Origin: a virus
Taxonomy: Duplodnaviria; Caudoviricetes
DNA: 64,000 bases
Reading direction: 5' to 3' (one strand)
IMG/VR virus record: IMGVR_UViG_2706794597_000005
Span: 9,601-73,600 of that record
In this document: positions 20,621-63,334 of the stretch, piece by piece
How positions within the stretch are numbered: the first letter of the stretch is position 1
Layout: every line of letters begins with the position of its first letter
Position numbers and translations under genes: made by a program
Notes under the pieces: generated by a model
The model's database searches: none
What the model was told of the DNA's origin: nothing
Seen by the model: only the letters and a program-made list of their open reading frames with translations

Positions 20621-20681
20621 TCTTTACCCGGTCAGTCAGGCTGGCCGGTTTCCCCTGACAACTAAGTGAAACGAGAAAATC

Positions 20682-23552: not shown

Positions 23553-23566
23553 GGAGATAACACACC

Positions 23567-48686: not shown

Positions 48687-48885
48687 GATTGTCTCCGTTG
48701 GTTGGCATTATCACAGGCACTCGTAAATGCCTGCTGTAATGTCAGTTATCATTTGTTCGCAGCTTTGCCACGCCTTCACAGAGTTGCTCTGCTACTTCTC
48801 GTCTTTCCGAGCCGTCAAGATAGGCCCAGTGAAACAGGCGATCACCTCCATCGAGAGAAGCTATCTATTCCTTGTCGGGGGAAAT

Positions 48886-49347
48886 CTACTTAGCCAGGCA
48901 CACGTTAGTGATATACGCCTGCAAGCCGTTTATTTGGCTTGTGGCAATTCCGATGCGCTCTCTGAGATGGAGATAATCCCGTTGAGCGGACTCAGTAAGT
49001 CGGGCGCTGGCATCATCAGGGACGCTGGCGGGTCCGGTGGTTTTGGACACTGGCTTTGTGCAAGTCGCGTTGAGCTGCAACCGCTTAGCGCCAGAAGCGA
49101 TATCAGCACGAAGGCGCTCGTTTTCAGATTTGGCATCTGCCAACTCCTTTGTGTATTTGATATCAATAGCGGCTACTGCTTGGCGCTGGGTCTCTATCTG
49201 GTCAAGAGTGGCTTGTTGCTGCTTGGCTACTTTGTTTAACTCAGCTACATCACGATTGAGTGATTGCACTCGGTAATGGTAGTAAGTCAGTCCAAACAGT
49301 GAAGCGATAAGCACAGCAACCAGAACGGCGGTTAATTTGCCAGACAT
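48886..49347 (-). CDS. Rz: Rz inner-membrane spanin
   Basis: N-terminal TM; D.KYTKELADAK..LRADI..G..RL; QI.GLQ.YI..C. Confidence 0.93.
   Translation of the reverse strand: MSGKLTAVLVAVLIASLFGLTYYHYRVQSLNRDVAELNKVAKQQQATLDQIETQRQAVAAIDIKYTKELADAKSENERLRADIASGAKRLQLNATCTKPVSKTTGPASVPDDASARLTESAQRDYLHLRERIGIATSQINGLQAYITNVCLAK
48930..49136 (-). CDS. Rz1: Rz1 outer-membrane spanin lipoprotein nested in Rz
   Basis: LALSGC lipobox and Pro-rich CPKPPDPPA segment in an alternate frame. Confidence 0.88.
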   Translation of the reverse strand: MPNLKTSAFVLISLLALSGCSSTRLAQSQCPKPPDPPASLMMPAPDLLSPLNGIISISESASELPQAK

Positions 49348-49844
49348 AACGCCTTCTCCTTTTCACGCCGGATGACTAAACCAGGCAATTGCTTCCCGCC
49401 ACCGTACGTCCATCGAGGGAATTGATAACAGGCCTCAGTAAACTTCCCTTCTCGCAGCATTCGATACATCGTTGATTTCTGCATCTGGGGGCAACCCGCG
49501 TTAAATGTGATGGAAGTAACCGCATCGAACTGGCCCTGATTCAGCTTGTTGCCATTGCCAAATTTGTTTACACAACGTTCAGCTTCAATAATATTTTTCT
49601 CCCAGTCTGCGGCGATCTGCTCATCAGACTTTCGGATGCCCTGCTTAACGCCATGAGTATTACCAATGCCATCGGTCAGCACTCCGGCCGGACATACGTA
49701 TGGGTCACGGCGGCATGATTCAGCATTACCAATAAGCTCTAAACCTTTCTCGCTAGTCCTAACCGTTCCGTTAGATACGACGATTGCAATAATAGCTGAT
49801 ACAGCGCAGGCGGTACCGGTAGTGACGCGCTTTAGTGCTGACAT
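49332..49844 (-). CDS. SAR endolysin, GH24 (P1 Lyz-like)
   Basis: Cys in the SAR helix; GLELIGNAESCRRDPYVCPAGVLTDGIGNT. Confidence 0.93.
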   Translation of the reverse strand: MSALKRVTTGTACAVSAIIAIVVSNGTVRTSEKGLELIGNAESCRRDPYVCPAGVLTDGIGNTHGVKQGIRKSDEQIAADWEKNIIEAERCVNKFGNGNKLNQGQFDAVTSITFNAGCPQMQKSTMYRMLREGKFTEACYQFPRWTYGGGKQLPGLVIRREKEKALCLAN

Positions 49845-50131
49845 TAATCAGCCTCCATTCTCTGCAAAGCCTCATTCACCACAGAGATTGCTTCAGGGTT
49901 AGTCTCGGCTGTCTTATCTTCCAAGAATTCACGAAGCAATTGAGTGCGCTTCTGCTCTTCCTTGAGTTGCGCATCCTTTTCACGCCGGTTCGCGTAATAC
50001 GTTTTTATTGTGAACCAGGCACTAATCAAAGCGCCGACAATAAAAATGTAATCCTGAGTGCTCAAAACAGAGAACGCGGCAAGTGACCCCGTCCACCAAT
50101 ACTGTAATTGGCTTGTGTCGTTCATTTTCAT
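49844..50131 (-). CDS. Holin with Met-Lys-Met dual-start motif
   Basis: ATG AAA ATG starts at 50131 and 50125; TM segment; charged tail; hairpin upstream. Confidence 0.8.
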   Translation of the reverse strand: MKMNDTSQLQYWWTGSLAAFSVLSTQDYIFIVGALISAWFTIKTYYANRREKDAQLKEEQKRTQLLREFLEDKTAETNPEAISVVNEALQRMEAD

Positions 50132-50268
50132 GACCCACCTCCCCATCCGGGGAATTATCTTCCCGGCGATTGGTCGGGTTCGTATGCTGTTTTGGGAATA
50201 GCCCTGCCGCCGTTTCCACTTTTCGCTAGAGGGCGTTTGCGGTTGATTGGTGTAGGCGGAGGGCTAAA

Positions 50269-50592
50269 TTATTTAAACGAGGCGTTACGCTTCAACATCT
50301 GCGCAATGCTCATGTCTTGGAACAAAATCTCAATTTCAAGCTTTTCAGCTAAAGCATATTCAGCTCGAGCACCGGCACTAGATTGCCACCCATCGAGCAT
50401 GTAAATAGCATCAGCTCGTTGAAGCATTGCTATGCAAATACACATGTAGTCAGGTTGAGATAATCCGTCAGGGAGAATTGCTGGGCTCAATGTGACGTGA
50501 CCAGATTCTGCTATCTCTTTGGCTGCCGCATTGAATGCAGAGCGATTGAAATCAGGCAAGCCAGTCATGGGGCCAGCGATATAAGTTTTCAT
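50269..50592 (-). CDS. DUF4406 / nucleoside 2-deoxyribosyltransferase-like protein
   Basis: YIAGPMTG..N..AF..PA..AML..DAIYML.GW..S.GA.AE. Confidence 0.85.
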   Translation of the reverse strand: MKTYIAGPMTGLPDFNRSAFNAAAKEIAESGHVTLSPAILPDGLSQPDYMCICIAMLQRADAIYMLDGWQSSAGARAEYALAEKLEIEILFQDMSIAQMLKRNASFK

Positions 50593-50776
50593 TGTTCTGG
50601 CTCCGTAAATAAAAAAGGCCCACCGAAGTGAGCCTTAAAAGTTGGTTATGCGTGGAGTTACTTAACGCATAAGAGAAATAGGTTAACGCATTCGGCTGGG
50701 TACTGTTTCACAACGATTGGATTAACCAACCCAGTACCCATGCGAATATCATTTTAATATTTATGATGTATATCAC

Positions 50777-50805
50777 TTGATGCGTAGTCTGTTTTCGATT
50801 ACATT
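50777..50805 (+). promoter_or_regulatory. Sigma70 promoter of the acr-aca operon with an overlapping inverted repeat (candidate Aca operator)
   Basis: TTGATG-17 bp-TACATT; GTAGTC-N7-GATTAC at 50784-50802. Confidence 0.65.
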
Positions 50806-50837
50806 AATCACATAGACAACGCGACGAGGCAAGCAAA

Positions 50838-51296
50838 ATGAAATTATTCCACGGCTCTTACAGCAACACCGCACCAGTTATCAAAGTAGGACAGTTCGCA
50901 ATGAGCGGTGATAACGTGTTTGATGGTCTGTTTGCTTCTGCTGAAGCAGAAATAGCAGAGTCACATGGTGATTTCATTCACTCTTATGAAGTTGATTCAG
51001 TCGCAACTAACTCAGATTTGAACGCCAGCATTGAAGAAGTGATTTCGTTCTTATCTTCTGAAATCGAAGCCGATGCTGATGAAATTGAATCACTGGCTAA
51101 CGCAATTGCTGATGATGAGTGTGATGATGCTTTTGAACACCTGTTAGCGCCTCGCTCTTGCACTGGCAACGCCTCATGGGAAATGCAGCGGCTGCGTGGT
51201 CGTGTTGCCGCTCACCTCGGTTTCGATGCGGTAGAAATGGATGACGAGCACGGCACTTCATACTTAATCGTAAATCCAGCAATCACGGCGGCTTGA
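50838..51296 (+). CDS. acrIF11: AcrIF11-family anti-CRISPR ADP-ribosyltransferase
   Basis: LFHGSY, VFDGLF, SHG, WEMQRLRG..A..LG...VEMDDEHGT match the recalled Pseudomonas AcrIF11 (LFHGSY, VFGGLF, WELQRLRG, VEMEDEHGT); very acidic. Confidence 0.88.
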   Translation: MKLFHGSYSNTAPVIKVGQFAMSGDNVFDGLFASAEAEIAESHGDFIHSYEVDSVATNSDLNASIEEVISFLSSEIEADADEIESLANAIADDECDDAFEHLLAPRSCTGNASWEMQRLRGRVAAHLGFDAVEMDDEHGTSYLIVNPAITAA

Positions 51297-51297
51297 T

Positions 51298-51468
51298 ATG
51301 GAACTAATCGAATATATCAAACTAAATTTTTCAGCCAATCAATCTGAGTTTGCCCGACACATGGGTGTTGACCGACAAAAAATCCAAGTGTGGATAAAGA
51401 GTGAGTGGATTGTTGTTGGTAATAAGCTTTACGCCCCACGCCGAGAGATTCCTGAAATTGATATGTAG
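51298..51468 (+). CDS. aca5: Aca5-like HTH anti-CRISPR-associated regulator (56 aa; below the ORF-track cutoff)
   Basis: MELIEYIKLNFSANQSEFARHMGVDRQKIQVWIKSEWIVVGNKLYAPRREIPEIDM; shares EYI..NF..N...FARHMGVD..WIKSEW..RREIP with the recalled Aca5; starts 1 nt after the acr stop. Confidence 0.85.
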   Translation: MELIEYIKLNFSANQSEFARHMGVDRQKIQVWIKSEWIVVGNKLYAPRREIPEIDM

Positions 51469-51474
51469 AAATGC

Positions 51475-51505
51475 AAAAAGCCCAACCGGTTAGGGCTGGG
51501 CCTTG
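51475..51505. terminator. Terminator closing the acr-aca cassette
   Basis: aaaaaGCCCAACC-ggttag-GGCTGGGC. Confidence 0.65.
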
Positions 51506-51612
51506 AATACTTGCTCGGCTCACTCCCCAACACTGTCATGACATTATGGGGACTACGAAGTTGTCATGACCGGATACCTACTTGCCGAGCGGTGGTATCG
51601 TACGCTCTTTAT

Positions 51613-51706
51613 AAAAGCCCCGGCGATTAACCGAGGCTTCAAGTGCGTCAACAATGGACAAATTCCCACTGTTAGAAACTTTAACCCCAACTTTCGGAAA
51701 AGTAAA
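51613..51706 (-). promoter_or_regulatory. Late promoter pR' region and tR'-like terminator
   Basis: Minus strand TTTACT..TAAAGT just downstream of Q; hairpin aaaaGCCCCGG..CCGAGGC at 51613-51639. Confidence 0.55.
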
Positions 51707-51743
51707 TAGCTATAGATAAAATAATTAACTATTTTCTAATTCA

Positions 51744-52514
51744 TTATTTGGTTACCTCCTTAAGCACCCTTTCTGCGTTACTTTCCTCGACATCAAGCTG
51801 ATGAATCAATGAGTCATAAAACGGTTTTATCGTCTTATCCCACGTTGCCGCACTAATTAAATCGGTGAATGCACAAATTGCCCTGAATGCGTCTGCTGCC
51901 GGTATTCGCTCATACCCAAGCCCGTTGCAGCGCTTGCAGTCACGTAGAACTGGAACACCTTGTCTCTCCGTTTCTTTTTGGTCAACAGCAACTCGCCTGC
52001 CACGGCAATCACGACACGCCACCGAAAGATGCCCCTTGCCATTACAGTGAGTGCAAATTTCGTCTACAACTTCGACCTTGGTTTTTGCTGGTGTTTTATC
52101 CCCGCAACCAGGGTGCTTGATAACGTTCTTTGCCCCGCTGATAAACTTCTTTCCCTTACATCGCGGACACTCTTCCACCCCAGAGGCGCTGCGGCAATAA
52201 TCCTTATAGGCGAAAGTTGCGAGCTTTTGCACTACCTTCACTTTAATCTTGGTGTCTAGCTTGCGTAAGGCTGCAACCTTGTCGCAATGCTTCATTCCAT
52301 ACTGAGTGAGTAATTGAATTGCACGTTTAACATCATCCTGACTTAGCCCTAGCTTTCCCCAAAAAGCTTTAATGCCAAGCTCCGCCCTCGACTGGCACAT
52401 TCCGAAAGCACCCATATGATCGGTGCCGGTAAGAGTGTCGCCAGTACATCTAGGTGAGTCAGTGAAGGACTGAGTTTTGCAGAAGAAATATTTTGATGCT
52501 GATTCTAAGCTCAT
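51744..52514 (-). CDS. Q: Late antiterminator Q (Cys-rich type)
   Basis: TLTGTD.M.AFG, DYCRSA, repeated CxxCxG motifs; between the nin region and lysis genes. Confidence 0.9.
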   Translation of the reverse strand: MSLESASKYFFCKTQSFTDSPRCTGDTLTGTDHMGAFGMCQSRAELGIKAFWGKLGLSQDDVKRAIQLLTQYGMKHCDKVAALRKLDTKIKVKVVQKLATFAYKDYCRSASGVEECPRCKGKKFISGAKNVIKHPGCGDKTPAKTKVEVVDEICTHCNGKGHLSVACRDCRGRRVAVDQKETERQGVPVLRDCKRCNGLGYERIPAADAFRAICAFTDLISAATWDKTIKPFYDSLIHQLDVEESNAERVLKEVTK

Positions 52515-52702
52515 TCTGACCTCTTCCTGCCAGTTGTCCCGACCATCAGCCGACCATTAACAATGGCGTGCCGTTCGCCTTTAAAGTCATTGGCGTATTT
52601 CTTTACTGTTGAGCGCTGAGTGTTTAGCTGGACCGCAACAGTTGATTGGTTTCCATAAGCGGAAATTAGTAACTCGGGAATAGTTTTCACATCTGCTTTC
52701 AT
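52511..52702 (-). CDS. ninH: NinH
   Basis: TIPELL...GNQ..VA..R.TV.KY..HAIVNG.LMV. Confidence 0.88.
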   Translation of the reverse strand: MKADVKTIPELLISAYGNQSTVAVQLNTQRSTVKKYANDFKGERHAIVNGRLMVGTTGRKRSE

Positions 52703-53343
52703 GCGGCCTCCTGAAGTTTTTTAAGCGATCGGGTTTTTGCCCTATATTCGTCACGAATGCGGATATAATCATCACGCCGGTAATGATTCATTTCGTGCGG
52801 ACCATCAAGCCAATCAACCAATTCTTGTCCAAACTTCTTTGCCAGCGATTCCCTGTACATCTTCTCAACCGTTGCCGCCTTGCCGCCGTACTTAGCTGAC
52901 CCGGCATTGCACGATTTGCACTGCCGATAGGCATTGCACTCAACGAACCGGAGTTCAGGGAAGCCGCCGACAGTTTTAAAATGACCACAATCCCACTGGC
53001 CACCGTGCAGATCTGGCGGGTTGGTTTCGCCGCAGCTAATGCAGGGCTGGTCGTGGTCGCGGGTTCGGATGTATTCGTTGAAGGCTTGCTGGGCTAACTT
53101 TTTGAAGTGACTATCTGGCTTGAGTTCTAACTTGCGGATTTTTAGGCTTTGCCTTTCGGCTTGGGTTTCCTTTTTTCGTCGCTGTTCATCTTTCTGTATC
53201 GTGTTCTGGCGGGCCTTAACTGCTAACTGCTTTATGTATTCCTCTTTGTGTTTTTCATCGCACCACCACTCATACTGCGTCGCTGGCTTGAACCTCGTTT
53301 TGCATACTTTGCAGTTACGATGGCTCGGTAGCTTGTTTATCAT
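52699..53343 (-). CDS. ninG: NinG/Rap endonuclease
   Basis: Q.AFN.YIR.RD...CISCG, WDCGH, ELRF..QC..CN. Confidence 0.92.
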   Translation of the reverse strand: MINKLPSHRNCKVCKTRFKPATQYEWWCDEKHKEEYIKQLAVKARQNTIQKDEQRRKKETQAERQSLKIRKLELKPDSHFKKLAQQAFNEYIRTRDHDQPCISCGETNPPDLHGGQWDCGHFKTVGGFPELRFVECNAYRQCKSCNAGSAKYGGKAATVEKMYRESLAKKFGQELVDWLDGPHEMNHYRRDDYIRIRDEYRAKTRSLKKLQEAA

Positions 53344-53464
53344 CGGCTTCCTCCAACATTTCTATTGAAGCGTTTTCCTGATCGCACTTATCACACGAAT
53401 AAACTTCATCGGGCTTTAGCGTTGCGCGGCAGAACGCGCAGACTGAGCGCTGTAGTTCAAGCAT
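53315..53464 (-). CDS. ninF: NinF-like small zinc-finger protein (49 aa)
   Basis: Hand translation MLELQRSVCAFCRATLKPDEVYSCDKC..; lies between ninE and ninG. Confidence 0.7.
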   Translation of the reverse strand: MLELQRSVCAFCRATLKPDEVYSCDKCDQENASIEMLEEADDKQATEPS

Positions 53465-53630
53465 TCTTTCTACTCCTGAGTCTTAGCCAGCGTTTAGCTA
53501 ATAACGGATAGATGGCGTCATATGTGGGTATTTCGCTGGCGGGGATTTGTTTGGTTAGCTTGGTTCGGGATGTCTTGCGGAATATCAGGTTATCTATGGC
53601 GATCTGTGTCGGGCTACGTTGTCGGCTCAT
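53457..53630 (-). CDS. ninE: NinE (57 aa)
   Basis: Hand translation MSRQRSPTQIAIDNLIF..SEIPTYD..RWLRLRSR. Confidence 0.8.
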   Translation of the reverse strand: MSRQRSPTQIAIDNLIFRKTSRTKLTKQIPASEIPTYDAIYPLLAKRWLRLRSRKNA

Positions 53631-53803
53631 TCATGCCGCCTTCCTGATTTTCTTAGGAAAATCCAATAGGGCCATGTGATGCCAATGCAAAATGCCCTCG
53701 CATACCCCACGACTGTTTCTTTACTGCCTTGAATGTCATGAGCCCATTCAGATACAACTCCAGCCATCCAGAAATATGCTGCGACTAATATCAGAGTAAT
53801 CAT
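53627..53803 (-). CDS. Small membrane protein (58 aa)
   Basis: Hand translation MITLILVAAYFWMAG..CIGITWPYWIFL; GAGGT RBS; overlaps the ninE start. Confidence 0.6.
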   Translation of the reverse strand: MITLILVAAYFWMAGVVSEWAHDIQGSKETVVGYARAFCIGITWPYWIFLRKSGRRHE

Positions 53804-53812
53804 GCTGCCACC

Positions 53813-54262
53813 TCAGAAGTAGCTATAAAGTTGGTTGATAATGTTCTGGTCAGTCGTTCGACCAAACAGGTGTTTTATTGCGGCGTTAACCATCGCGTTG
53901 TAACAGCGTTCGAACTCGTCAGGCTCCATGTTCGCGTAAGCCAAACTCTTTGCTTCCGTCCTGATATCACCATTCAGCCTCATCGTTTGCTCATAGAATC
54001 CCGCCAGAATGGTTAAGTCCTTTCTGAATCGGTCAAATTGAGTGGATTCATCTGCGTTGGCCAGCGCCGTTTTATCAGCAGACCAGTGGGAAAAGCAGAA
54101 ATTGAATAAGGCGAACATTTTTCGGTGAAAGGCGGGGTTGCGAGTTAGCTTAATGTCGGCGGTGTACATCTCGCCGTTTTTGAACTTGGTTAACCTAGGT
54201 AAGTCATGATCGAAGGCTGGTACAAAAACGCCACCGGCATTCTTGACCATTTCGATTTGCAT
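53813..54262 (-). CDS. DUF1367 family protein
   Basis: RNPAFHRKMFAL, FRK.L...AG.Y, KSLAYANM...EF...Y. Confidence 0.8.
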   Translation of the reverse strand: MQIEMVKNAGGVFVPAFDHDLPRLTKFKNGEMYTADIKLTRNPAFHRKMFALFNFCFSHWSADKTALANADESTQFDRFRKDLTILAGFYEQTMRLNGDIRTEAKSLAYANMEPDEFERCYNAMVNAAIKHLFGRTTDQNIINQLYSYF

Positions 54263-54355
54263 TAAAAATCTACCTGCTCGGGTGAGTTAGCCAAATTAGC
54301 CATACGAAGAATATTCCGGAACATATGGCACCTAAGAAATAAAACCACTCACTGG

Positions 54356-54889
54356 TCATAGTGGCCTCTCCGGCGAGTCAGGTAGTTGTGCCCAATATGT
54401 GATTGTCACTTTGTCAGGGTCACAGTCATCCTCAATTGGCTCTAGCCGGTCGCGCTTATACTTCTTGTTATCACAGTGATAATAAAACGGTATGTAACAA
54501 GGCTCATCGCCGTCATAGTAAGTACCCCAGCCCGTATAATGACCTTCTTTGTCGGGCATTCGGTCACTGAACTTAATCCAACAATCCGGTATCTCCGGAG
54601 AGTTCAACTGTGAAATTGGCGGGAATAAATAAAGCTTTTGGTCATCTTTAATTTCGATTTCATTTTCATTTTTATCAACAAAACTCCATCCGTAGCAATC
54701 GCCGCCGCCCGTATAGATGAAATCTATAGGCTCAGCCCTCTTTGCAGCTAACGCGATTCGAGCTAGGGAAAGTAATTCTCGAGGGCTTACTGGCATTTCA
54801 TCACCAGTTGGAGTGTTATGAATCTCTTGCTGGCAGGAACTTATAATTTCTTCAATCTCTTCTACAGTGAAACTATCTAATTCTTTCAT
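54356..54889 (-). CDS. Eaa/DUF551-like mosaic phage protein
   Basis: LARIALAA, NSPEIPD.WI..S.RMP..TYWAQLP. Confidence 0.7.
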   Translation of the reverse strand: MKELDSFTVEEIEEIISSCQQEIHNTPTGDEMPVSPRELLSLARIALAAKRAEPIDFIYTGGGDCYGWSFVDKNENEIEIKDDQKLYLFPPISQLNSPEIPDCWIKFSDRMPDKEGHYTGWGTYYDGDEPCYIPFYYHCDNKKYKRDRLEPIEDDCDPDKVTITYWAQLPDSPERPL

Positions 54890-54898
54890 GGGGTTACC

Positions 54899-55114
54899 TC
54901 AATAGCAGAAGTCAACAGTGAATTCGTTTTCACACTCAGGGCATGTGACATCAACGTCTCGAGTTGCATGTGTGTCGTGCTCTAGTGGCTCGAAATCAGC
55001 ATCACAGCGGAAGTCTTCATCATCCATCATGTCAAATCGCTCACGACACTTAGGGCAGGTAACATACAATTGGATTTCCCAATTTGCGTAAGTTTTTACC
55101 TTCTTAATACTCAT
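54899..55114 (-). CDS. Small zinc-ribbon protein
   Basis: CPKC..CPEC motifs. Confidence 0.65.
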   Translation of the reverse strand: MSIKKVKTYANWEIQLYVTCPKCRERFDMMDDEDFRCDADFEPLEHDTHATRDVDVTCPECENEFTVDFCY

Positions 55115-55276
55115 TCACTCTCTCCCCCTCTCAAATTCAGCTATCAGCAACAGCACATTTTCCGGCGTTGCATCGTCTTGCCAGTTGTCTGATGTGTCGC
55201 TAGCTTCACGGAGCATGATTTCTTCTTGTGCGGCAGCTTTAAGGTCGGTGATTAGTGCTTCGATTGACTTGCTCAT
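55115..55276 (-). CDS. Ead/Ea22-like small protein (53 aa)
   Basis: Hand translation ..ATPENVLLLIAEFE; coupled to both neighbours. Confidence 0.55.
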   Translation of the reverse strand: MSKSIEALITDLKAAAQEEIMLREASDTSDNWQDDATPENVLLLIAEFERGRE

Positions 55277-55464
55277 TCATTTTCCATCCCCAGAAATGAC
55301 AGTGAAGTTATCCCGATTGGTTTAACGCCAAATTTAATTTCAATTAAACCCTTTAATCGCTCCAAATCTTCTTGGCTAACAATTCTAAACAGTATCTGTG
55401 CTATTCCTGTTGCATTGCTTTCACCAAAATCAGCACAGTAATGGTATATGTATCGGTTACTCAT
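55273..55464 (-). CDS. Hypothetical phage protein
   Basis: Translationally coupled ORF in the nin region. Confidence 0.6.
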   Translation of the reverse strand: MSNRYIYHYCADFGESNATGIAQILFRIVSQEDLERLKGLIEIKFGVKPIGITSLSFLGMENE

Positions 55465-55662
55465 TCACTCTCTCCCTTGATTCATTGCAGCATGTCTATC
55501 GCATGGGTTATCGAATTCGCAGCATTCAGTAAAGCCACCGGTACATTTTTTAAACCAAACATGCTCTTTACTGTGGTTTACAGCGTGCTTATCCGGGCCC
55601 CATGCGGTTCTTGCTGCAGAAAGGAATTGAGTCGCGTCTTCTTTGTTGATTAATCTACTCAT
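55465..55662 (-). CDS. Hypothetical Cys/His-rich phage protein
   Basis: Translationally coupled ORF in the nin region. Confidence 0.55.
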   Translation of the reverse strand: MSRLINKEDATQFLSAARTAWGPDKHAVNHSKEHVWFKKCTGGFTECCEFDNPCDRHAAMNQGRE

Positions 55663-55949
55663 TTCCCGCCTCCTTTAATCCGAATGCCCGCGTTCTTGAG
55701 TGCTTGCTTGATGTCGTAATTTAATCTTGATGGGTATCCATATGGATCAAAGTCAGGATACTCCACCTCAATGCTTTCACGGCTGGCTTTCCAGAAATGC
55801 CAAGCCAGCCCAATTCCGGCTGTAACAATTCTTGCCTCATCCCAATACCCGTCACCATGCCTAGCAGAAATCACCTGCTCAATCCTTAACCCCCTTTTGG
55901 CTGCAAATTCAATTTCAAACTCTTCCCGCGATTTAGTTATGTCCATCAT
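55659..55949 (-). CDS. Hypothetical phage protein
   Basis: SREEFE..AW..WKASR..AGI.IKG pattern common after replication gene P. Confidence 0.65.
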   Translation of the reverse strand: MMDITKSREEFEIEFAAKRGLRIEQVISARHGDGYWDEARIVTAGIGLAWHFWKASRESIEVEYPDFDPYGYPSRLNYDIKQALKNAGIRIKGGGK

Positions 55950-56635
55950 GATTTCCTCGTCATGTTCAGCTTGGCGCGCAGTTCAGCAATGTGATCCAGT
56001 GCCTTCTCGTTGCTAACCGGTATGTGAAGTTTGGGGATTTGCACTACCGGCGCGGGGATCGGCTCACCAGATTCAATGCGCTTCGACATGTCAGCCAACT
56101 CTTTGCCGCAACGTTTCCGTAAGTCCTGCTCAGATAGCCCCTGCACTCGCTGCTGTGAATAAAGCTTTGTGACCATCCAGTAAGCCGGATTGCTGGGCCA
56201 AGGGAATGCTTCGGCACTGCTGAACATGTCACGACGCTTGGCATAATCCATCACCATGTCATAAAGCTCATCAGCATCAGGCAGTCCAGCGGCGCGGGTG
56301 GCACCCTGCTTACACCATGCAATGAATTGACCAGGTGACGGGAGGAACGGCGTAGCCTGCTGACGAGCAATCTTCATACCGGCATCAACTTGATCCATGT
56401 TGGTAATGCCGTTTTCTATGAATGCCAACACCCACTGGCGACGTAGCTCGTTCAGGTCGCGTTGGTCTTTGATGCTAGTCATCAGCGCTGGAAATGCAGC
56501 CTTCAACTGGCGAAATAGCTCGTTGAATATATCCGCGGCCTGCTCTGGCACCTGCTGCTTTGGCTTATCAGCGGCGTACATCTGCTGCAATGATTGACCA
56601 TCACGGTTCTGGATGGCTGTGACGACATTTCTCAT
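55946..56635 (-). CDS. P: Replication protein P (DnaB loader)
   Basis: FNELFRQL.AAFPA, RRQW..AF.ENGI, PFLPSPGQF..WC. Confidence 0.93.
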   Translation of the reverse strand: MRNVVTAIQNRDGQSLQQMYAADKPKQQVPEQAADIFNELFRQLKAAFPALMTSIKDQRDLNELRRQWVLAFIENGITNMDQVDAGMKIARQQATPFLPSPGQFIAWCKQGATRAAGLPDADELYDMVMDYAKRRDMFSSAEAFPWPSNPAYWMVTKLYSQQRVQGLSEQDLRKRCGKELADMSKRIESGEPIPAPVVQIPKLHIPVSNEKALDHIAELRAKLNMTRKS

Positions 56636-57621
56636 ACCGATACCCCGTTTATCCAGTCAGTGTTATCGAAGTCCAAAACAGGCTTACCAGTGGCAGTGCC
56701 TGATTGCTGTTTCTTGCGCTTGATGTCCAGCTTGTCCCATTTCTCGCGAAGCGTTGACGGGCAAAGCACGTTGCCACACCAGAAACTATCCTGAGTGGCC
56801 CACTTGAAGAGCACACACATATCTCGGTGATTCCTGCCATCCCGTTCACGCATCAACCTGATGCTATTGGCCCAGCCAGCAAAAGACGGCTTTTTAGCGT
56901 CAGGGGCAATCATCAACACGGCGCTGAACATCCACTCAGCTGCTCGAAGGTCTTCAGCAGTTCCCCAATTTTTACCGCTTTGGATTGCAGCATCAGGACG
57001 AACTACAGGAAGCTTCTTAGGTGGGGTGTCAGGGGATTCGTTAGAATTCTCTGACGTAAAGGGTTTTATATTATTGTTATTACCTTCTTGTTCATGATGT
57101 GCGGGTTTAAGTGCGGCGTTATGTGCGGCACCACCTTCTAAAGCCGCGCCGTTACTGGCTTCACCATGTGCGGGTTTAAGTGCGGCGTTATGTGCGGGTA
57201 AATTGTCTATTTTTTCGGCATATTCAGCGTAATTTAGGATGGTGATTACCGTCCCTTTTCGCTTCTCTCCACCCGTTGCAATCATCCCTTCTTTGACGAA
57301 AAAGGAGAGCATCCTGCCCACCGCATCACGGCTTGTTGGCTTACCTTCTCTATCGCACAGAGATAGCCCTAAATCAGCCGCTGTCGTGACCAGTTGACCG
57401 GCTTGAAGATTCCATTGGTGACCTTTGAAATTAACCGTGCGGGGCTTTCTTTGAGCACCCAATAGCAGGTCCTCCCAGAGAGTCCGCAGGAAAACATCTT
57501 TGTGCCAAGGTTTCTTCTTGATGCTTCGGTACAACGGGACATAACCAAGCTTCTGGTTCTCCATCCTGTTGCTCCTGCGCTCACGTTCGGCGCTGATATC
57601 AAATACTTTGGCTGTACTCAT
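56632..57621 (-). CDS. O: Replication initiator O-like protein
   Basis: WANSIRLMRERD, FWCGNVLCP..LR.KWD.L, DFDNTDW; internal iterons. Confidence 0.9.
   Translation of the reverse strand: MSTAKVFDISAERERRSNRMENQKLGYVPLYRSIKKKPWHKDVFLRTLWEDLLLGAQRKPRTVNFKGHQWNLQAGQLVTTAADLGLSLCDREGKPTSRDAVGRMLSFFVKEGMIATGGEKRKGTVITILNYAEYAEKIDNLPAHNAALKPAHGEASNGAALEGGAAHNAALKPAHHEQEGNNNNIKPFTSENSNESPDTPPKKLPVVRPDAAIQSGKNWGTAEDLRAAEWMFSAVLMIAPDAKKPSFAGWANSIRLMRERDGRNHRDMCVLFKWATQDSFWCGNVLCPSTLREKWDKLDIKRKKQQSGTATGKPVLDFDNTDWINGVSV
57060..57198. repeat. Replication origin: six AWGTGCGG iterons in two 32-bp direct repeats, next to an AT-rich tract
   Basis: atgtgcgggtttaagtgcggcgttatgtgcgg at 57097 and 57166; 12-bp period; inside O. 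Confidence 0.85.
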
Positions 57622-58298
57622 GCGGCAATATCCTTGATTTGATGAGCAGCCAGTAATCCGGCGATCCATTGGATGCCTTTGGGGGTGAACTTGTTTTGGA
57701 TGAAGGCGTGACCGTTTGTTAGGTTCTCGCCTGTTTTAACAGTGAAGCGACCTGCATCGATGTGTTGAGCGTAAGGCGTTAGCTTCCCAGCCAACAGATA
57801 CATGATCTCGCTATCGATCAGGAACTTACGGAAGGTTGGTTCTTTGATGTGAAGAAGCTTGCACGTTTCGCGAAAACCAAGAGATCCGGTTGCAGTTACG
57901 TAGCTGTCAACGAACTGAACTTTCGGTGCTGCAATAGCAAGTTGATTTTCAAGTTTCTGTTTTTCTTCTGCGAGGTCTGCCGCCAGTCGCAAGGCATCTG
58001 GCAAGTTTTGAGGAATGCGCGCCTGATTTTCCAGCTCCTGCCAGCGGTCAACTAATCGAGCCGTGAACTCAGGGGAAAGCTGAGCAACGACGATGTAGCT
58101 ATCGCGCTTGCTAACATGGTACTGCTGATACCGCTGACCATTCTGCGGGTGGGTGTACGCCGTTGGCGCAGACCCCTGAATTACGCCTTTAGCCATTAAG
58201 CGCTCAATGGTTCTACAAACATCGGCATGGCGAGACTCCAGAAGTTCAGCTATTTCTACGCTGCACATAGTCTGATTTACTACTGTTGATAAACTCAT
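57618..58298 (-). CDS. Rha-N / KilAC (ANT) antirepressor, Roi-like
   Basis: M.S.EIAEL..RH..V, FTARLVDRWQELE, ALRLAADL, PKV.F.D, FTPKG..W. Confidence 0.88.
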   Translation of the reverse strand: MSLSTVVNQTMCSVEIAELLESRHADVCRTIERLMAKGVIQGSAPTAYTHPQNGQRYQQYHVSKRDSYIVVAQLSPEFTARLVDRWQELENQARIPQNLPDALRLAADLAEEKQKLENQLAIAAPKVQFVDSYVTATGSLGFRETCKLLHIKEPTFRKFLIDSEIMYLLAGKLTPYAQHIDAGRFTVKTGENLTNGHAFIQNKFTPKGIQWIAGLLAAHQIKDIAA

Positions 58299-58390
58299 GT
58301 ATAATTACCTCTGTAATTGGCTTGCATACCTGATTACCGATGCCCTAACAGTTCGTGCTGTTGGGGCATTTTCATTTGGGATATTCATGA

Positions 58391-58924
58391 TTAGAAACGC
58401 ATTGGCATGATGACGACCGAGGCTTTACTGAATGAACCGGCAAACTCGATGATTGCATAACCTATCGTGCTACTAGGCTTAATTCGGATACCGCAATATT
58501 TAGGACTGTAGAGCTTTGCTGCCTTTTCGATATCAGCTAAATAACCAGCGTTGAAGCCAATCTCTGAAACTGGATTATTTTCTTTCGGTATGATTCGTTC
58601 TACTTTTGGATACACTCCATCAATGACTTCACATAAACCTATGCAAGCCTTGATACCATTCTTATCCAGGTAAGAAACAACGCCGGTTTCAGTATCGATA
58701 ACTGCTGTTTTGAACTTGGTAAATTTAGGGCCATTGATGGCAACAATGACGTTCCCTTCCAATCCTTCTGTATCGTGCTCACCGATGAATAACCGATGAC
58801 CATCTGTTGCAAACAGCTTCTTATCAGGCGCAAAGCAGATCCCGTTTAAGTAATAACGAACATCTTTCTTTGCCTGAAAAATCATTGCGCTTAATAGCGC
58901 CTCTTTACTCAGCGTTAAAATCAT
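58391..58924 (-). CDS. Truncated DNA polymerase III beta-clamp-like protein
   Basis: DVRYYLNG..ATDGHRL..IDGVYP...RIIP..IGFN..YL..VIMPMR, DnaN central and C-terminal motifs; 177 aa. Confidence 0.75.
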   Translation of the reverse strand: MILTLSKEALLSAMIFQAKKDVRYYLNGICFAPDKKLFATDGHRLFIGEHDTEGLEGNVIVAINGPKFTKFKTAVIDTETGVVSYLDKNGIKACIGLCEVIDGVYPKVERIIPKENNPVSEIGFNAGYLADIEKAAKLYSPKYCGIRIKPSSTIGYAIIEFAGSFSKASVVIMPMRF

Positions 58925-58933
58925 TTTTTAATC

Positions 58934-59221
58934 TCAAAAGTTGATAGTAAATTGTTTGGAATCCATGCCCTTCTGTTGGGCTTTTTGCTTTCCGGTCACC
59001 GCAATCACAGCCTGCCTTGCGATTTCCCTTATCACGCTCGTCTCCCATATCTTCTCCAGAAGAACAAACGTCACTGCCATGTCATGTACGTTTAACCGGC
59101 TTACCTTTGATTCGGCCCAGCCAGCCTCCCGCGCAAACTTGCTCTGGCCCTTGATAGCCATTCGGCTTCGTAGCTCAGATTCAACTTCCATAATTCTCTT
59201 GCTGTTACTTGCACGTTCCAT
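58934..59221 (-). CDS. cII: CII transcriptional activator
   Basis: MERA..ESEL..GQSKFA..G..ESKVSR; position after cro. Confidence 0.85.
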   Translation of the reverse strand: MERASNSKRIMEVESELRSRMAIKGQSKFAREAGWAESKVSRLNVHDMAVTFVLLEKIWETSVIREIARQAVIAVTGKQKAQQKGMDSKQFTINF

Positions 59222-59291
59222 TGCGTACTCTTCCCTTGTGATTTGAATGTTGCTGTTCCTCCCCGATGGTTTGGGGATTTAGTTTTGATGG

Positions 59292-59322
59292 GCGCTTTTC
59301 AGCGCAGAGGATTTAATGAGCG
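59292..59322 (-). promoter_or_regulatory. nutR (boxA and boxB)
   Basis: Minus strand CGCTCATTAA..GCGCTGAAAAGCGC. Confidence 0.8.
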
Positions 59323-59330
59323 GGTGGTGA

Positions 59331-59570
59331 TTAAGCGGCGTTAAGTTGATTTGTAGGTAACCCGTCAGTTTTGTTCGGGTAGTCATCACTGTTTAATTCA
59401 TGAGGTGTTACCGCCCAATTGGTTGCCTCTGACCATTGAATGGCCTTGCGTCCCTTTGGTTTGTAACGACCAGCAATAACTTGACTAACAAAACCCTGAG
59501 TAACACCGGCAGCAACCGCATAGTCAGCTTGGCTAATGCCGTTCTGTTTTAGGTAATCATTCAGATTCAT
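59331..59570 (-). CDS. cro: Cro-like repressor
   Basis: HTH SQ..A...GVTQG.VSQ; VTPHEL..YP..DGLP; divergent from cI. Confidence 0.88.
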   Translation of the reverse strand: MNLNDYLKQNGISQADYAVAAGVTQGFVSQVIAGRYKPKGRKAIQWSEATNWAVTPHELNSDDYPNKTDGLPTNQLNAA

Positions 59571-59597
59571 ATCTATCTCCATTTGCTAGATACGACA

Positions 59598-59662
59598 ATA
59601 TTAGTGCTACTGATTAAGAAAAGCAATAGCTGCACTATTTGTTAATTATTAGCAATACGAAT
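59598..59662. promoter_or_regulatory. OR1-3 operators and pR
   Basis: 15-bp sites at 59600, 59625 and 59648 related to ATTAGTAGCACTATT; minus strand TTGCTT-17 bp-TAATAT. Confidence 0.8.
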
Positions 59663-59674
59663 AAAGTCGCGAGC

Positions 59675-60388
59675 ATGGCAAAGAAAAATGTAATTACTGA
59701 AGAAGACTTGAAAATTGCGGATCGCTTAAAGCAAATTTGGGATAGAAAAAAAGACCAGTTAGGACTTAGCCAGGAAAAGGCGGCGGGAATACTTGGTTTT
59801 AGCACTCAAGCAGCTATAAGCCAATTCCTTAATGGCAAGACTTCTCTTAACACAGAAAATATCCTCAAATTCTCTGCGCTGCTTGATGTAGCACCGGAGG
59901 AAATTAATCCATCTATCGGGCCACTGCTTGCACATGTAAGGGCAACGGCACAGACAACTAATTATAAGGATCCGACTCCAGCTTATGGTTACCCATTGAT
60001 TAGTTGGGTTCAGGCTGGAGCATTTAGCGAGATTGATGGGTCATTCACTGAAAGAGATGCCATCAGGTTAGTGGACTCCACTAAAAGAGCCGGGAATAAC
60101 GCATTTTGGCTGGAAGTTAAAGGCGACTCAATGACGGCTCCTGTAGGGGTTAGTTTCCCAGAAGGCATGCTCATTCTTGTTGATCCTGATAGGGCAGTTC
60201 ACGATGGTGACCTGTGTGTTGCATATTTGACGAACAAAAAAGCAGCCACCTTCAAGAAATACGTTGAGGACGCTGGTGATCACTTCCTTAAACCGCTAAA
60301 TCCCGCGTGGCCTTTGACTGAAATCAATGAAGACTGCCGCATCATTGGGAAGGTCATCGATGCTACGTGGGAAGATTTGGACAGCTAA
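59675..60388 (+). CDS. cI: CI repressor with S24 autocleavage domain
   Basis: HTH; VQAG cleavage site; KGDSM Ser and TFKK Lys. Confidence 0.95.
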   Translation: MAKKNVITEEDLKIADRLKQIWDRKKDQLGLSQEKAAGILGFSTQAAISQFLNGKTSLNTENILKFSALLDVAPEEINPSIGPLLAHVRATAQTTNYKDPTPAYGYPLISWVQAGAFSEIDGSFTERDAIRLVDSTKRAGNNAFWLEVKGDSMTAPVGVSFPEGMLILVDPDRAVHDGDLCVAYLTNKKAATFKKYVEDAGDHFLKPLNPAWPLTEINEDCRIIGKVIDATWEDLDS

Positions 60389-60419
60389 CCCACTGCTAGC
60401 CCATAACTTAGGGGGCGCA

Positions 60420-60554
60420 ATGAAAAACTATGCAGTTCCAATCATTCTGATTGTGATAGCTATCATAGGTCTCCTATACGCCAACCGCACATCAGAGAGA
60501 ATAGCTCAATGGGTTAGCCAGGTGTTATCGTTTATCTTCACTGCTAGCCCATAG
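60420..60554 (+). CDS. Small membrane peptide (44 aa) flanked by 15-bp direct repeats
   Basis: MKNYAVPIILIVIAIIGLLYA..; GGGGG RBS; cactgctagcccata at 60391 and 60539. Confidence 0.55.
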   Translation: MKNYAVPIILIVIAIIGLLYANRTSERIAQWVSQVLSFIFTASP

Positions 60555-60858
60555 AGGGGTGGGTGGGTGGATAGTAAAAATTATACTTTTCGATTACTAA
60601 CCACCCCAAAATATGGAAATATCACTGATAGCACCTATACAACGTGTTAATGTGTACTAAGATTAATCAACGAAATAAATTTTAAGTAAAGGTTATAGGA
60701 CTCTTGCCGATATGGTGTTTATTGGATATACATATAGACCTAATTAAGCAAGGGACGCTTTATGAATCATTTTGGTTGCTAAACGTACCTTCCTGTATAA
60801 ATAAAGCTCAGATCTATTGAAATCTGGGTTGAATGACACAATAAAAGGAGTATGATTA

Positions 60859-61206
60859 GTGACCCATGATTTTAGTGATTGTGCGAAGGTTTCAGGTGCT
60901 GAAGCATCTTTGCAGGAAAGACAAATCTATACGGTGCAATTGGGCGTTAAATCGCTAATTGACTTTGTTGTTACAAGCTTTGAATTGCTTGGAATCGATA
61001 AGTTTCATGAGTTAGTAGACCCATCTTTGGGTGACATCGAAGCTATAATTATTAAGTTAGATGCAAAGGCTAAGCAGATTGGTGATATTGATCTGCAGCA
61101 GATACTGCTCAGTGCACAAATCATGATAAAAAATATTAAAGAAAAGAATCCTGAACTTTGTGAGCAAGGGTCTAAATTCCTTAAAAATGCCATGGTGTTC
61201 AAGTAG
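60859..61206 (+). CDS. Hypothetical protein at the rex-equivalent locus
   Basis: 115 aa; AAGGAG RBS; AT-rich. Confidence 0.7.
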   Translation: MTHDFSDCAKVSGAEASLQERQIYTVQLGVKSLIDFVVTSFELLGIDKFHELVDPSLGDIEAIIIKLDAKAKQIGDIDLQQILLSAQIMIKNIKEKNPELCEQGSKFLKNAMVFK

Positions 61207-61232
61207 TTATTGCCGCCCACGAGGAGATTACT

Positions 61233-61358
61233 ATGACTAACAAACAGAAATGCATTAGTGAAATGCTGCAACTCACCAAGCAACTTAATGCTATCGTTGC
61301 ATCGCTGCATGCAAAAAGAGATCAGATGCTGGAAGAAATGACGCAAAAAGCTGCGTAA
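61233..61358 (+). CDS. Small helical protein (41 aa) at the rex-equivalent locus
   Basis: GAGGAG RBS; MTNKQKCISEMLQLTKQLNAIVASLHAKRDQMLEEMTQKAA; followed by a terminator. Confidence 0.6.
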   Translation: MTNKQKCISEMLQLTKQLNAIVASLHAKRDQMLEEMTQKAA

Positions 61359-61375
61359 ATTCTGGTAAAGTTCTC

Positions 61376-61403
61376 AAAACCCGGCCCCGATGCCGGGTTT
61401 TTT
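61376..61403 (+). terminator. Rho-independent terminator
   Basis: aaaaCCCGGC-cccgat-GCCGGGtttttt. Confidence 0.8.
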
Positions 61404-61531
61404 GTGCCTGTAATCTTGCAATATAAAGAAACTCATCTACGCTAAGAGCACAACATCAGGGATTACAAATATATAAACTTAGTCTTTACCTTTGCCCACC
61501 GCGTCCCGTGTGGGCTTTTTTATGTCTGTAA

Positions 61532-61738
61532 TCAGCCTTCTGGCGGTAATCTCAGAATATCAATAGCTAGCTCGACGGCTAAAGTTACCTGTTCCTCCTG
61601 ATACAGTACCTCTATCATCTCTGCTATCGAATCCTTCGACACTTCCTCACTCTCTATTAGTATCTGCATCACAGCAGTACCGATAACTTGCGCCACTTCT
61701 GGGCGTTGCTGCTCGAAAAACTCTTGTTCGCTATCCAT
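61532..61738 (-). CDS. Small acidic hypothetical protein
   Basis: 68 aa; GGTGAG RBS; converges on the hairpin at 61493-61521. Confidence 0.6.
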   Translation of the reverse strand: MDSEQEFFEQQRPEVAQVIGTAVMQILIESEEVSKDSIAEMIEVLYQEEQVTLAVELAIDILRLPPEG

Positions 61739-61855
61739 ATCTCACCCATCAAAGAATAAATTTCACCCAATTTAGCACACTTGACGACGTTTTTTCGGCT
61801 GGATGCTTGAGGGTAACCACTACATTGAAAAAATAAATACATATAGAAATCAATA

Positions 61856-61922
61856 ATAAGTAGCACTACTATAAATAATTATTAGAAGCACTATTGACCT
61901 TAATAATTAGTAGCACTATTAT
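61856..61922 (+). promoter_or_regulatory. OL1-3 operators and pL
   Basis: ataagtagcactact, attagaagcactatt and attagtagcactatt at 25-bp spacing; TTGACC-17 bp-TATTAT. Confidence 0.85.
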
Positions 61923-61964
61923 GAATCCATCAACACGGCAGGACGCCAAAAGTACGACAGGGAG

Positions 61965-61995
61965 TGTTCTTTAAGATAACAGCGCTGAAAAGTGC
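61965..61995 (+). promoter_or_regulatory. nutL (boxA and boxB)
   Basis: TGTTCTTTAA..GCGCTGAAAAGTGC; a long RNase III-like stem follows (62014-62117). Confidence 0.8.
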
Positions 61996-62130
61996 AAAAC
62001 AACCAAAGCGAATGAGTTTTGGGATGTGGTGAAAATCTTGCTGTAGAGGCTGATGGTTGCAAATGCAGTCACAGTCCAGACAGAGAACGGCACTGTCCAC
62101 CGCATCACCAAAACTCATACAGGAGGTTTT

Positions 62131-62301
62131 ATGAATACTAAATTACTTAAGGTCACCGTGCGCGCTTCTGGAAATCCAGTCTACTTTGGTCGCACTTTCG
62201 TTGGTCACACTAAAACCGAATTCTCATACAAAGGCCGCCCAGCTACTAGCGTCATCAATCCTAAGCAGCGCTATATGAAGCTGTCTCCAATCTCCCTTTA
62301 G
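62131..62301 (+). CDS. Small basic protein upstream of N (56 aa)
   Basis: AGGAGG RBS then ATG at 62131; MNTKLLKVTVRASG.. Confidence 0.6.
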   Translation: MNTKLLKVTVRASGNPVYFGRTFVGHTKTEFSYKGRPATSVINPKQRYMKLSPISL

Positions 62302-62363
62302 TTATTTCATCATGCCGCTTAATTAAGGCGGCATTAGTGAAGTTATTAACTGGAGGTAACACC

Positions 62364-62711
62364 ATGGCTCATCAAGGTTATGACAACGCCAGACAGCGCC
62401 GTAACGATAAGCGCTTGGCTCTCACAGCAGCATATAACGCACAACACGGCATCGTAGAACCAGAGTCACGCGAAGTTAAGCGCCCTACTCTGCGATTGAA
62501 CCGTAAGCCAGCCAGCCGCATAGAAAGCGCTATCAAGCCTATCAGCTTCGAATACAGAGCACAGATAGAGAAAGCGGCGGAGTTTTACGGGGCACTGGCA
62601 GAGAAAGCATCAGAGAAACGCCAGCGCGCCAATCTGAAAGTTCGCGGCAACTACGACCAGCAAGTCAACGCTCGCCAGAAGATGCGCGGTAAAAGCATAC
62701 CGCTTATTTAG
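62364..62711 (+). CDS. N: Early antiterminator N
   Basis: Arg-rich NARQRR..R motif; C-terminal ARQKMRGKSIPLI; downstream of pL/nutL. Confidence 0.88.
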   Translation: MAHQGYDNARQRRNDKRLALTAAYNAQHGIVEPESREVKRPTLRLNRKPASRIESAIKPISFEYRAQIEKAAEFYGALAEKASEKRQRANLKVRGNYDQQVNARQKMRGKSIPLI

Positions 62712-62740
62712 AAGCCCACCACATAGTTAAGGGGTAAGAG

Positions 62741-63043
62741 ATGATACAGAATCCAAAAGTTATAGTTTTAGAGCGAAATAAAAGCGGCAGTTACGCAATA
62801 GCAATTACGGATGGCAGTGATAATTTTAATGACGCACTGTTAGCTGTTTCGGTAAAGCTACGCGATAACACCGACAGCTTAGAATCTATGATGGAAGCGG
62901 CACTTTGCTATGCTGCTCAACGGATCTTACAGTTAGAAAAAGGTGGCTACTCACAGCCACCTAGTGGGGAGCCAGAGGCAGTAGGTGGTACAGGTTTGCA
63001 GTCAACAAAGCCATATCCAGAACCAACGCCGATCGCTCTATAA
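62741..63043 (+). CDS. Hypothetical phage protein
   Basis: ORF with RBS following N. Confidence 0.55.
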   Translation: MIQNPKVIVLERNKSGSYAIAITDGSDNFNDALLAVSVKLRDNTDSLESMMEAALCYAAQRILQLEKGGYSQPPSGEPEAVGGTGLQSTKPYPEPTPIAL

Positions 63044-63334
63044 GCCATCTGAGGGAGCGAGTGTTAAATATCCAGACCAGCGATCAAATGAGCACACCAC
63101 AATTTGTGGGCTATTATCTGAAACCTGCAAGGCCACACGCTGGATGCTATCCCGTACTTCTTCAATAGGTTGAGTGAGATTAGCCACATAGGTTCCCGTA
63201 GGTAAAGAACTAACCCTGCCACTATCACCGATTATTTCTTTGCTGAACCCTATGCCTCGCATCATTTCGTGCAAAAGTTCGTATTCATTTGCATCACCGC
63301 CAGAAATTTCGACTCTGGCTATATAGCTGGTCAT
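63038..63334 (-). CDS. DUF2622/GhoS-like small protein
   Basis: Y.ARVE......YE.LHE.M...GF...I..D.G....LP..TY; AAGGA RBS; antisense to the pL operon. Confidence 0.7.
   Translation of the reverse strand: MTSYIARVEISGGDANEYELLHEMMRGIGFSKEIIGDSGRVSSLPTGTYVANLTQPIEEVRDSIQRVALQVSDNSPQIVVCSFDRWSGYLTLAPSDGL

Follow-up and report, generated by a model that had tools for sequence, protein, structure and literature searches.

An acrIF11-aca5 anti-CRISPR operon predicted on a mobile 0.7-kb cassette in a lambdoid Yersinia prophage

We analysed a 64,000-nt stretch of viral DNA (the window: positions 9,601 to 73,600 of IMG/VR record IMGVR_UViG_2706794597_000005), part of a 73.6-kb provirus record that is a composite of two prophages, and characterized in it a two-gene locus predicted to encode an anti-CRISPR protein (Acr) and an anti-CRISPR-associated regulator (Aca). 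Both open reading frames (ORFs) are on the plus strand, antisense to all neighbouring genes, and lie between the Q antiterminator gene and the lysis block. An earlier note on this DNA had proposed here an acidic 152-aa ORF coupled to a 56-aa helix-turn-helix (HTH) gene, inserted antisense between Q and the lysis genes and resembling acrIF11 and aca5. The two ORFs were located at 50838-51296 and 51298-51468, Pfam and phrog matches confirmed the flanking genes, and homology searches bore out both family assignments. The features of the locus are as follows.

50838-51296, plus strand: acrIF11-family gene, 152 aa, predicted ADP-ribosyltransferase (NF052490, 6kyf_A, Foldseek, conserved residues)
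51298-51468, plus strand: aca5-family gene, 56 aa, predicted HTH repressor (identity to the Aca5 prototype, phrog_10103, structure model)
50826-50829, plus strand: Shine-Dalgarno sequence GAGG, 8 nt before the acr ATG, read from the sequence
50777-50805, plus strand: predicted sigma-70 promoter, read from the sequence (-35 TTGATG at 50777-50782, 17-nt spacer, -10 TACATT at 50800-50805)
50784-50802: predicted Aca5 operator (IR1), GTAGTC-N7-GATTAC (covariation in 59 promoters)
50762-50777, plus strand: putative CRP-like dyad, TATGA-N6-TCACT, overlapping the -35
50753-51459, plus strand: extent of the mobile acr-aca cassette (block common to relatives)

The acrIF11 and aca5 genes

The product of the first gene scored 133.5 bits on the NCBIfam equivalog model NF052490 ('AcrIF11 family anti-CRISPR ADP-ribosyltransferase'), whose cut-off is 50 (E 9.9e-39), and the alignment spanned residues 1-144 of the protein and positions 1-142 of the 142 in the model. 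A phmmer search of all Protein Data Bank (PDB) sequences returned two matches only, both of them solved AcrIF11: 6kyf_A ('AcrF11'), aligned over residues 1-145 of the window protein (E 7.2e-15), and 8dwq_A, aligned over the C-terminal 40 residues (E 5e-4). 8DWQ is given as AcrIF11Pae2 in PMC12421852 and PMC13131331. An AlphaFold2 model of the 152-aa protein built from a 21-homologue alignment had a predicted local distance difference test score (pLDDT) of 80 and a predicted template modelling (TM) score of 0.80. With this model, Foldseek placed 6kyf first (E 1.8e-8, TM 0.63/0.69, 37% identity) and 8dwq second; of 400 matches with E up to 10, 6kyf alone reached E <= 0.001.

The residues reported for binding of nicotinamide adenine dinucleotide (NAD) and for catalysis in AcrIF11 are His7, Phe26, His37 and Asp115, with D115A inactive (PMC8120803), and D115/E116 are described as a conserved loop (Chen 2025, PMC12421852). 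H7, F26, H37, D115 and E116 align to H5, F32, H43, D136 and E137 of the window protein, all five of which were invariant across the 21-sequence homologue alignment. The window protein thus shares with the Pseudomonas aeruginosa enzymes AcrIF11Pae1 (6KYF) and AcrIF11Pae2 (8DWQ) the hidden Markov model (HMM) family, sequence homology, the predicted fold and the H/F/H/D(E) residues, as well as an N-terminal MxLFHGS motif and a C-terminal EMxDEHGT motif.

A protein search gave 148 relatives at E <= 0.001 from 169 candidates. Among the 120 relatives listed, Yersinia, Dickeya, Pectobacterium, Brenneria, Serratia, Klebsiella, Enterobacter, E. coli and others were represented; PF26151 was precomputed on 120/120, and several already bore the NCBI name 'AcrIF11 family anti-CRISPR ADP-ribosyltransferase'. 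A Pfam scan of the window protein at E <= 1 gave two rows, both at chance level, and the Pfam copy scanned seems to be one without PF26151. The window protein also differs from the prototype. It has 152 aa, whereas the 6kyf_A chain has 137 residues and AcrIF11Pae1 is given as 132 aa long; it is also strongly acidic (isoelectric point [pI] 4.11; 29 D+E against 6 K+R). The residues absent from 6KYF lie near positions 15-25 and 93-113, and the latter stretch lies in the helical region, where the family is said to vary most (Chen et al. 2025, PMC12421852). The earlier note had taken the additional 20 aa and the acidity as hints of a changed specificity. The median homologue length was 155 aa, with 148-166 aa in 110/120 among the matches listed, so that the added residues appear normal for the enterobacterial clade and give no ground for an altered specificity, though they would be compatible with one.

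The second gene was compared with the Aca5 reference, WP_039494319.1, a 60-aa Pectobacterium protein assigned to HTH_28 (PMC7648647, PMC9410906), which was recovered letter for letter in a Pectobacterium odoriferum locus (L010:4489-4668). BLASTP aligned the 56-aa window protein to it end to end with 32/59 identical residues (54%; E 2e-21); the window protein, of the Yersinia branch, differs from this prototype in being shorter and in the absence of a 5-residue insertion. Pfam HTH_28, the family given for Aca5 in the literature (PMC9410906), matched weakly and below its 25-bit cut-off (19.6 bits, E 0.001), and phrog_10103 matched with E 1e-11. The AlphaFold model (pLDDT 91) comprised three helices and a beta-hairpin. 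Foldseek gave no significant structural neighbour of this model (best E 1.4), and its weak top rows were mostly HTH proteins (CylR2, Xis, Fis, HipB, HigA2 and Cro). Since the aca5 ATG begins 1 nt after the acr TGA and its Shine-Dalgarno sequence is poor, translational coupling of aca5 to acr is likely.

Close relatives of both proteins were from Yersinia, chiefly Y. kristensenii (95-97% identity), and a protein identical to the window Aca was present on 27 contigs. A word-indexed search with the 56-aa query yielded eight Aca relatives whose named rows were all Yersinia, a number that reflects the limit of such searches for short queries and not rarity; context and profile searches brought a further eight from genomes and 66 from viral contigs. 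Of 17 genome loci that encode AcrIF11 relatives (from 34 pattern matches), eight had an Aca5 relative directly downstream of the acrIF11 homologue (phmmer E 6e-31 to 2e-12), and in the other nine (L005, L006, L011-L017) none was found there. Among the 66 viral IMG/VR loci with an Aca5 relative, an AcrIF11 homologue was encoded upstream in 24, directly adjacent in 23; the remaining 42 had no AcrIF11 homologue upstream and, in its place, many unrelated small acr genes.

Two of the loci without a downstream Aca5-like gene, L005 and L006 on Rouxiella badensis plasmid pSP2, carry identical acrIF11 homologues, each preceded by an 87-aa ORF resembling another HTH regulator. In a Yersinia similis locus (L013), the AcrIF11-like tblastn match spans 1363-1847 and the open frame stops at 1788 (141 aa); this copy may be frameshifted or truncated. 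The same genome also has Csy1 if it is the one numbered G029 in our set.

Promoter, operator and cassette boundaries

The predicted promoter was supported by its position in relatives. A profile from eight upstream regions found a counterpart in 50/66 of the IMG/VR loci encoding an Aca5 relative, which together with the window and eight genome loci gave an alignment of 59 promoters (49 distinct), in which TTG and TAnAnT stand in the same columns. The inverted repeat fills the spacer between the -35 and -10, and its right arm overlaps the -10. Taken alone, the dyad of the window was no better than chance. Across the alignment, its seven pairs were paired in 95.3% of cells, as against 84.3% in shuffles (0/500 reached this value) and 21-46% in controls with slid partner columns; these counts include G-T as paired and come from an alignment seeded with dyad-bearing sequences, which biases them towards the dyad. 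Four of the seven pairs change on both sides: the outer pair (A-T/G-C), two inner pairs (A-T/G-C and T-A/C-G) and the innermost pair (A-T/G-C).

The half-site consensus is RTARYC, and both half-sites of the window fit it. The dyad was present in 58/59 aligned promoters, the exception being L002 (Buttiauxella). The 6-7-6 inverted repeat of the earlier note therefore stood in geometry and in position (50784-50802) and gained covariation; its arms proved imperfect. Because the window's G/T combination at the mismatched pair occurs in 10/49 distinct promoters, it is, on this comparison, a tolerated variant of the operator. These patterns identify 50784-50802 as the predicted Aca5 operator. For every Aca family, Aca5 included, an inverted repeat in the core promoter is described by Shehreen et al. 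2022 (PMC9410906), where ten promoters tested with their cognate Aca proteins showed about 90% repression. The window agrees with the Aca5 promoter-operator of that study in where the repeat lies, inside the core promoter. For Aca5 the same paper also states another such repeat upstream, which was seen here in L071, L073, L075, L081, L087-L096 and L107; unlike these, the window has no second copy, and a CRP-like dyad occupies the upstream position.

Between the -10 and the ribosome-binding site, the 5' leader (50806-50825) reads CATAGACAACG in the window and ATCGAAACGAG in most relatives. It is conserved across Aca5-linked promoters, also where the downstream gene is not acrIF11, and may have a further role in regulation or stability.

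The consensus for CRP is TGTGA-N6-TCACA, and class II sites are centred near -41.5. The dyad at 50762-50777 matches this consensus at 8/10 positions and is centred at about -42.5 from the predicted start. A TGTGA-N6-TCACT dyad 22 nt before the operator (21 in L069) characterized the window, L008, L009, L045-L051, L065 and L069, which comprise 11 distinct sequences. Each of the ten half-site positions was conserved in at least 10 of the 11, whereas five of the six spacer positions were conserved in only 5 to 8 and the sixth in 11/11. Ten related loci (nine distinct promoters) had 9/10 consensus matches at the same offset. That L065 and L069 carry other forms of the operator and lack AcrIF11 speaks against recent common descent alone as the cause of this conservation. 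In other branches, a second Aca5 operator copy or an A-rich stretch stands at about the same place. Within the window, CRP-like matches were not above chance (12 found, 7.0 +/- 3.3 expected), and the window copy has TATGA (G-to-A in the left half-site) where 10/11 relatives have TGTGA; it may be a weakened variant. It is possible, though on balance doubtful, that in the Yersinia branch a CRP-type dyad replaces the second Aca5 operator and that acr expression would be activated by CRP with cyclic AMP (cAMP). In Pectobacterium, activation of the type I-F cas operon by CRP-cAMP is reported (PMC4499141). A limited literature search found no paper joining 'anti-CRISPR', 'acr promoter' and 'CRP'.

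The boundaries of the cassette were defined by comparison with related prophages, and the hairpins on its flanks are as follows.

51477-51504, minus strand: hairpin/terminator of the late (Q-dependent) transcript (folding and U-run; comparison with L033)
51613-51640, minus strand: terminator (-23.3 kcal/mol, z -4.9)
50615-50636, minus strand: terminator (terminator scan and folding)

The block 50753-51459 was common to L008, L018 and L022-L024, with differing flanks, and was missing from the related prophage sites L033, L037 and L038. In L033, a 59-nt hairpin element (50689-50747 in the window) directly abuts the hairpin at 51463-51507 with no cassette between them; in L037 and L038, what follows this element corresponds to 51613-51640. 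The cassette of Y. vastinensis (L008), like that of L024, lies on the opposite side of the 59-nt element. Because related prophages lack exactly this block, 50753-51459 is by comparison a mobile 0.7-kb cassette.

The earlier note had closed the operon with a terminator. A hairpin does exist at 51477-51504, but it makes a good terminator only on the opposite, late strand: on the minus strand the fold has -20.3 kcal/mol (z -3.0) with a U-run behind it, whereas on the plus strand it is weak, at -13.1 kcal/mol (z +0.4), and lacks a U-run. Since L033 keeps this hairpin without the cassette, and folding agrees, comparison assigns it to the phage backbone, outside the cassette. With three minus-strand terminators in place, a late transcript from downstream of Q must pass all three, reading the cassette antisense. 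Without Q, the cassette would be insulated from the late transcript, with a possible effect on acr expression.

The 59-nt element itself forms a stable hairpin on the minus strand (-25.7 kcal/mol, z -3.6) and recurs at 92-100% identity in many Yersinia genomes, in several places in some. A 961-base query containing it matched 20/28 species representatives with up to nine matches per genome, some of which are pieces of the flanking terminators. In the compared prophages, it stands beside lysis-side or Q-side backbone pieces, with the acr cassette on either side.

Type I-F targets and alternative explanations

Csy3 was found in 3/5 genomes carrying acrIF11-aca5 (Y. vastinensis, Rouxiella sp. and Ewingella sp.) and was not found in the 73.6-kb provirus record itself. 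The Y. vastinensis genome thus holds acrIF11-aca5 together with a type I-F system. Its Cas8f matched the PA14 Csy1 (5uz9_A; E 8e-65), and the Asn of its PLNIS segment stands opposite N250 in PQNIS. We compared the window with 198 spacers from nine type I-F array loci in seven Yersinia genomes, one genome flagged as limited and a few scattered repeats being excluded. Three of the 198 matched over at least 24 nt, at the following diverged protospacers.

4006-4037: three mismatches, 5'-CC
50223-50254, minus strand: 28/32 (four mismatches), 5'-CC, about 500 nt from the cassette
31656-31687: five mismatches, 5'-CC

In all three, 5'-CC precedes the protospacer on the spacer-sense strand, which has a chance of about 2e-4 under equal base use. 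CC is the type I-F protospacer-adjacent motif (PAM), written GG in PMC7648647. The three CC-flanked matches indicate that Yersinia type I-F systems target phages of this kind. The spacer matching 50223-50254 comes from a species representative (G026) with a type I-F style array of 18 repeats and no Csy1 match, possibly an orphan array.

Taken together, the sequence evidence makes it very probable that a functional acrIF11-aca5 anti-CRISPR operon stands here, on a mobile 0.7-kb cassette of a lambdoid Yersinia prophage. Several observations weigh against this interpretation. Identity to the characterised AcrIF11 is only 37%, and activity of the window protein is assigned by analogy. The promoter matches the consensus at 8/12 positions and was not listed by a consensus scan of the plus strand, and the operator arms are complementary at 5/6 positions. 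Csy1/Cas8f was found in 6/28 Yersinia species representatives, the other 22 giving no match, and two Pectobacterium genomes with acrIF11-aca5 gave no Csy3 match. When the array region of Y. vastinensis was searched by BLAST against its genome, no self-targeting spacer was found, a search that imperfect matches can escape. AcrIF11 homologues are also reported on Klebsiella plasmids, with no effect there on type I-E or IV-A3 systems (PMC11781037), and AcrIF11 therefore often sits in hosts without its presumed target.

The low identity and the genomes without Csy1 or Csy3 matches would also suit a functional offshoot, an AcrIF11-like enzyme whose target in Enterobacterales is not Cas8f but another Cascade type, a defence protein or a host protein; so would the helical region, longer than that of the prototype and different from it, and the homologues in E. 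coli and Klebsiella. We consider such an offshoot improbable. The score lies far over the equivalog cut-off, phage-borne Acrs often pass through hosts in which their target is missing, Yersinia Cas8f retains the target Asn, and Yersinia type I-F spacers match this phage type. Moreover, AcrIF11 is reported to be highly specific for Csy1, in vivo too (Chen 2025, PMC12421852), and the inertness of the Klebsiella homologue on I-E and IV-A3 speaks against a switch to those systems.

An inactive passenger cassette, with a decaying copy or a crippled promoter, was judged less probable still. The operator mismatch, the mutated left half of the CRP-like dyad and the promoter's departures from consensus could be read as decay, but neither frame is broken or shortened, the catalytic residues are conserved, the G/T operator form is one that other promoters tolerate, and the exact Aca protein recurs on its 27 contigs. 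The least probable of the readings, and a very unlikely one, is a module like a toxin-antitoxin pair, with an ADP-ribosyltransferase toxin and an HTH antitoxin or autorepressor serving prophage stabilisation or abortive infection. Such a module would share the gene order, in which an enzyme gene comes before that of a small autorepressing HTH protein and the two overlap or are coupled; several Aca proteins are said to resemble the HigA2 and GraA antitoxins (Shehreen et al., PMC9410906), and the Aca model has HigA2 and HipB among its weak fold matches. Both families have nevertheless been characterised as an anti-CRISPR and its repressor, the occurrence of Aca5 behind many unrelated acr genes fits a promoter regulator and not a cognate antitoxin, and the effect of AcrIF11 expression is reported to be Csy1-specific in vivo (PMC12421852).

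If the anti-CRISPR operon operates as its characterised relatives do, the sigma-70 promoter would drive a bicistronic acr-aca transcript. The 152-aa mono-ADP-ribosyltransferase would use NAD to place ADP-ribose on the PAM-recognising Asn of Cas8f (N250 in PA14), by analogy with the Pseudomonas enzyme, acting on Cas8f within the assembled type I-F Csy complex, which would lose DNA binding. Being an enzyme, the Acr would act substoichiometrically and in trans. A dimer of the 56-aa Aca5 would bind the RTARYC-N7-GRYTAY dyad across the spacer and the -10, and the acr promoter would be shut down once enough Aca5 is made. The terminators at 51613-51640 and 51477-51504 (minus strand) would block late transcription into the cassette until Q is made, after which antiterminated polymerase would cross the cassette antisense.

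Surroundings and significance of the operon

The genes on either side of the cassette are as follows.

51744-52514, minus strand: Q antiterminator gene (PF03589, E 1e-37; phrog_127)
50269-50592, minus strand: DUF4406 gene (E 3e-35; phrog_355 'nucleoside 2-deoxyribosyltransferase')
49844-50146: holin (phrog_1350)
49332-49844: lysozyme (PF00959)
48886-49347: Rz (PF03245)

The DUF4406 gene opens the late operon, with the terminators on one side and the holin on the other, in a moron-like position adjoining the acr cassette. An Rfam scan of 50200-52000 returned sub-threshold rows only (STnc100, Phe_leader and PsrR1). The row for the small RNA STnc100, at 50605-50681 on the minus strand (28.9 bits against a gathering score of 47; E 6e-4), overlaps the terminator at 50615-50636 and a hairpin with 13-nt arms at 50646-50672.

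At a larger scale, 9165-25000 showed 77% identity to P2-like phages (pro147, STYP1 and Yersinia phage P37) in their tail and baseplate modules, as the earlier note had anticipated in placing a P2-like prophage nearby, and 48757-63504 matched lambdoid Yersinia phages of the vB_YenM group piecewise; the provirus record therefore joins two prophages. The lambdoid prophage region extends over about 39000-64000 and the P2-like region over about 9165-25000. As the Acr would act in trans, it is plausible that it would protect both joined prophages, the P2-like neighbour included.

The acrIF11-aca5 pairing was the starting point of an acr search by Pinilla-Redondo et al. 2020 (PMC7648647). The window shares with the Enterobacterales prophage operons of that paper the same two genes in the same order, with Aca5 at the 3' end, and the prophage location, and differs from them in having a single acr gene and no stack. 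Judged from its sequence, it is an ordinary intact acrIF11-aca5 operon, the Yersinia branch of a described and HMM-modelled kind that is experimentally characterised in relatives. Operons of this kind were reportedly first described by Marino et al. in 2018. The locus adds little as a discovery, as an NCBI family model already names the enzyme and the pairing is published. Its value is that of a clean annotation: a Yersinia prophage with a predicted catalytic anti-CRISPR, the exact boundaries of its cassette and the operator half-site RTARYC. If the CRP-like dyad did act as proposed, the phage would raise its counter-defence upon the same signal by which the host raises its defence. A real site there would be a first example of an acr promoter under a host global regulator, and it would bear on the timing of counter-defence.

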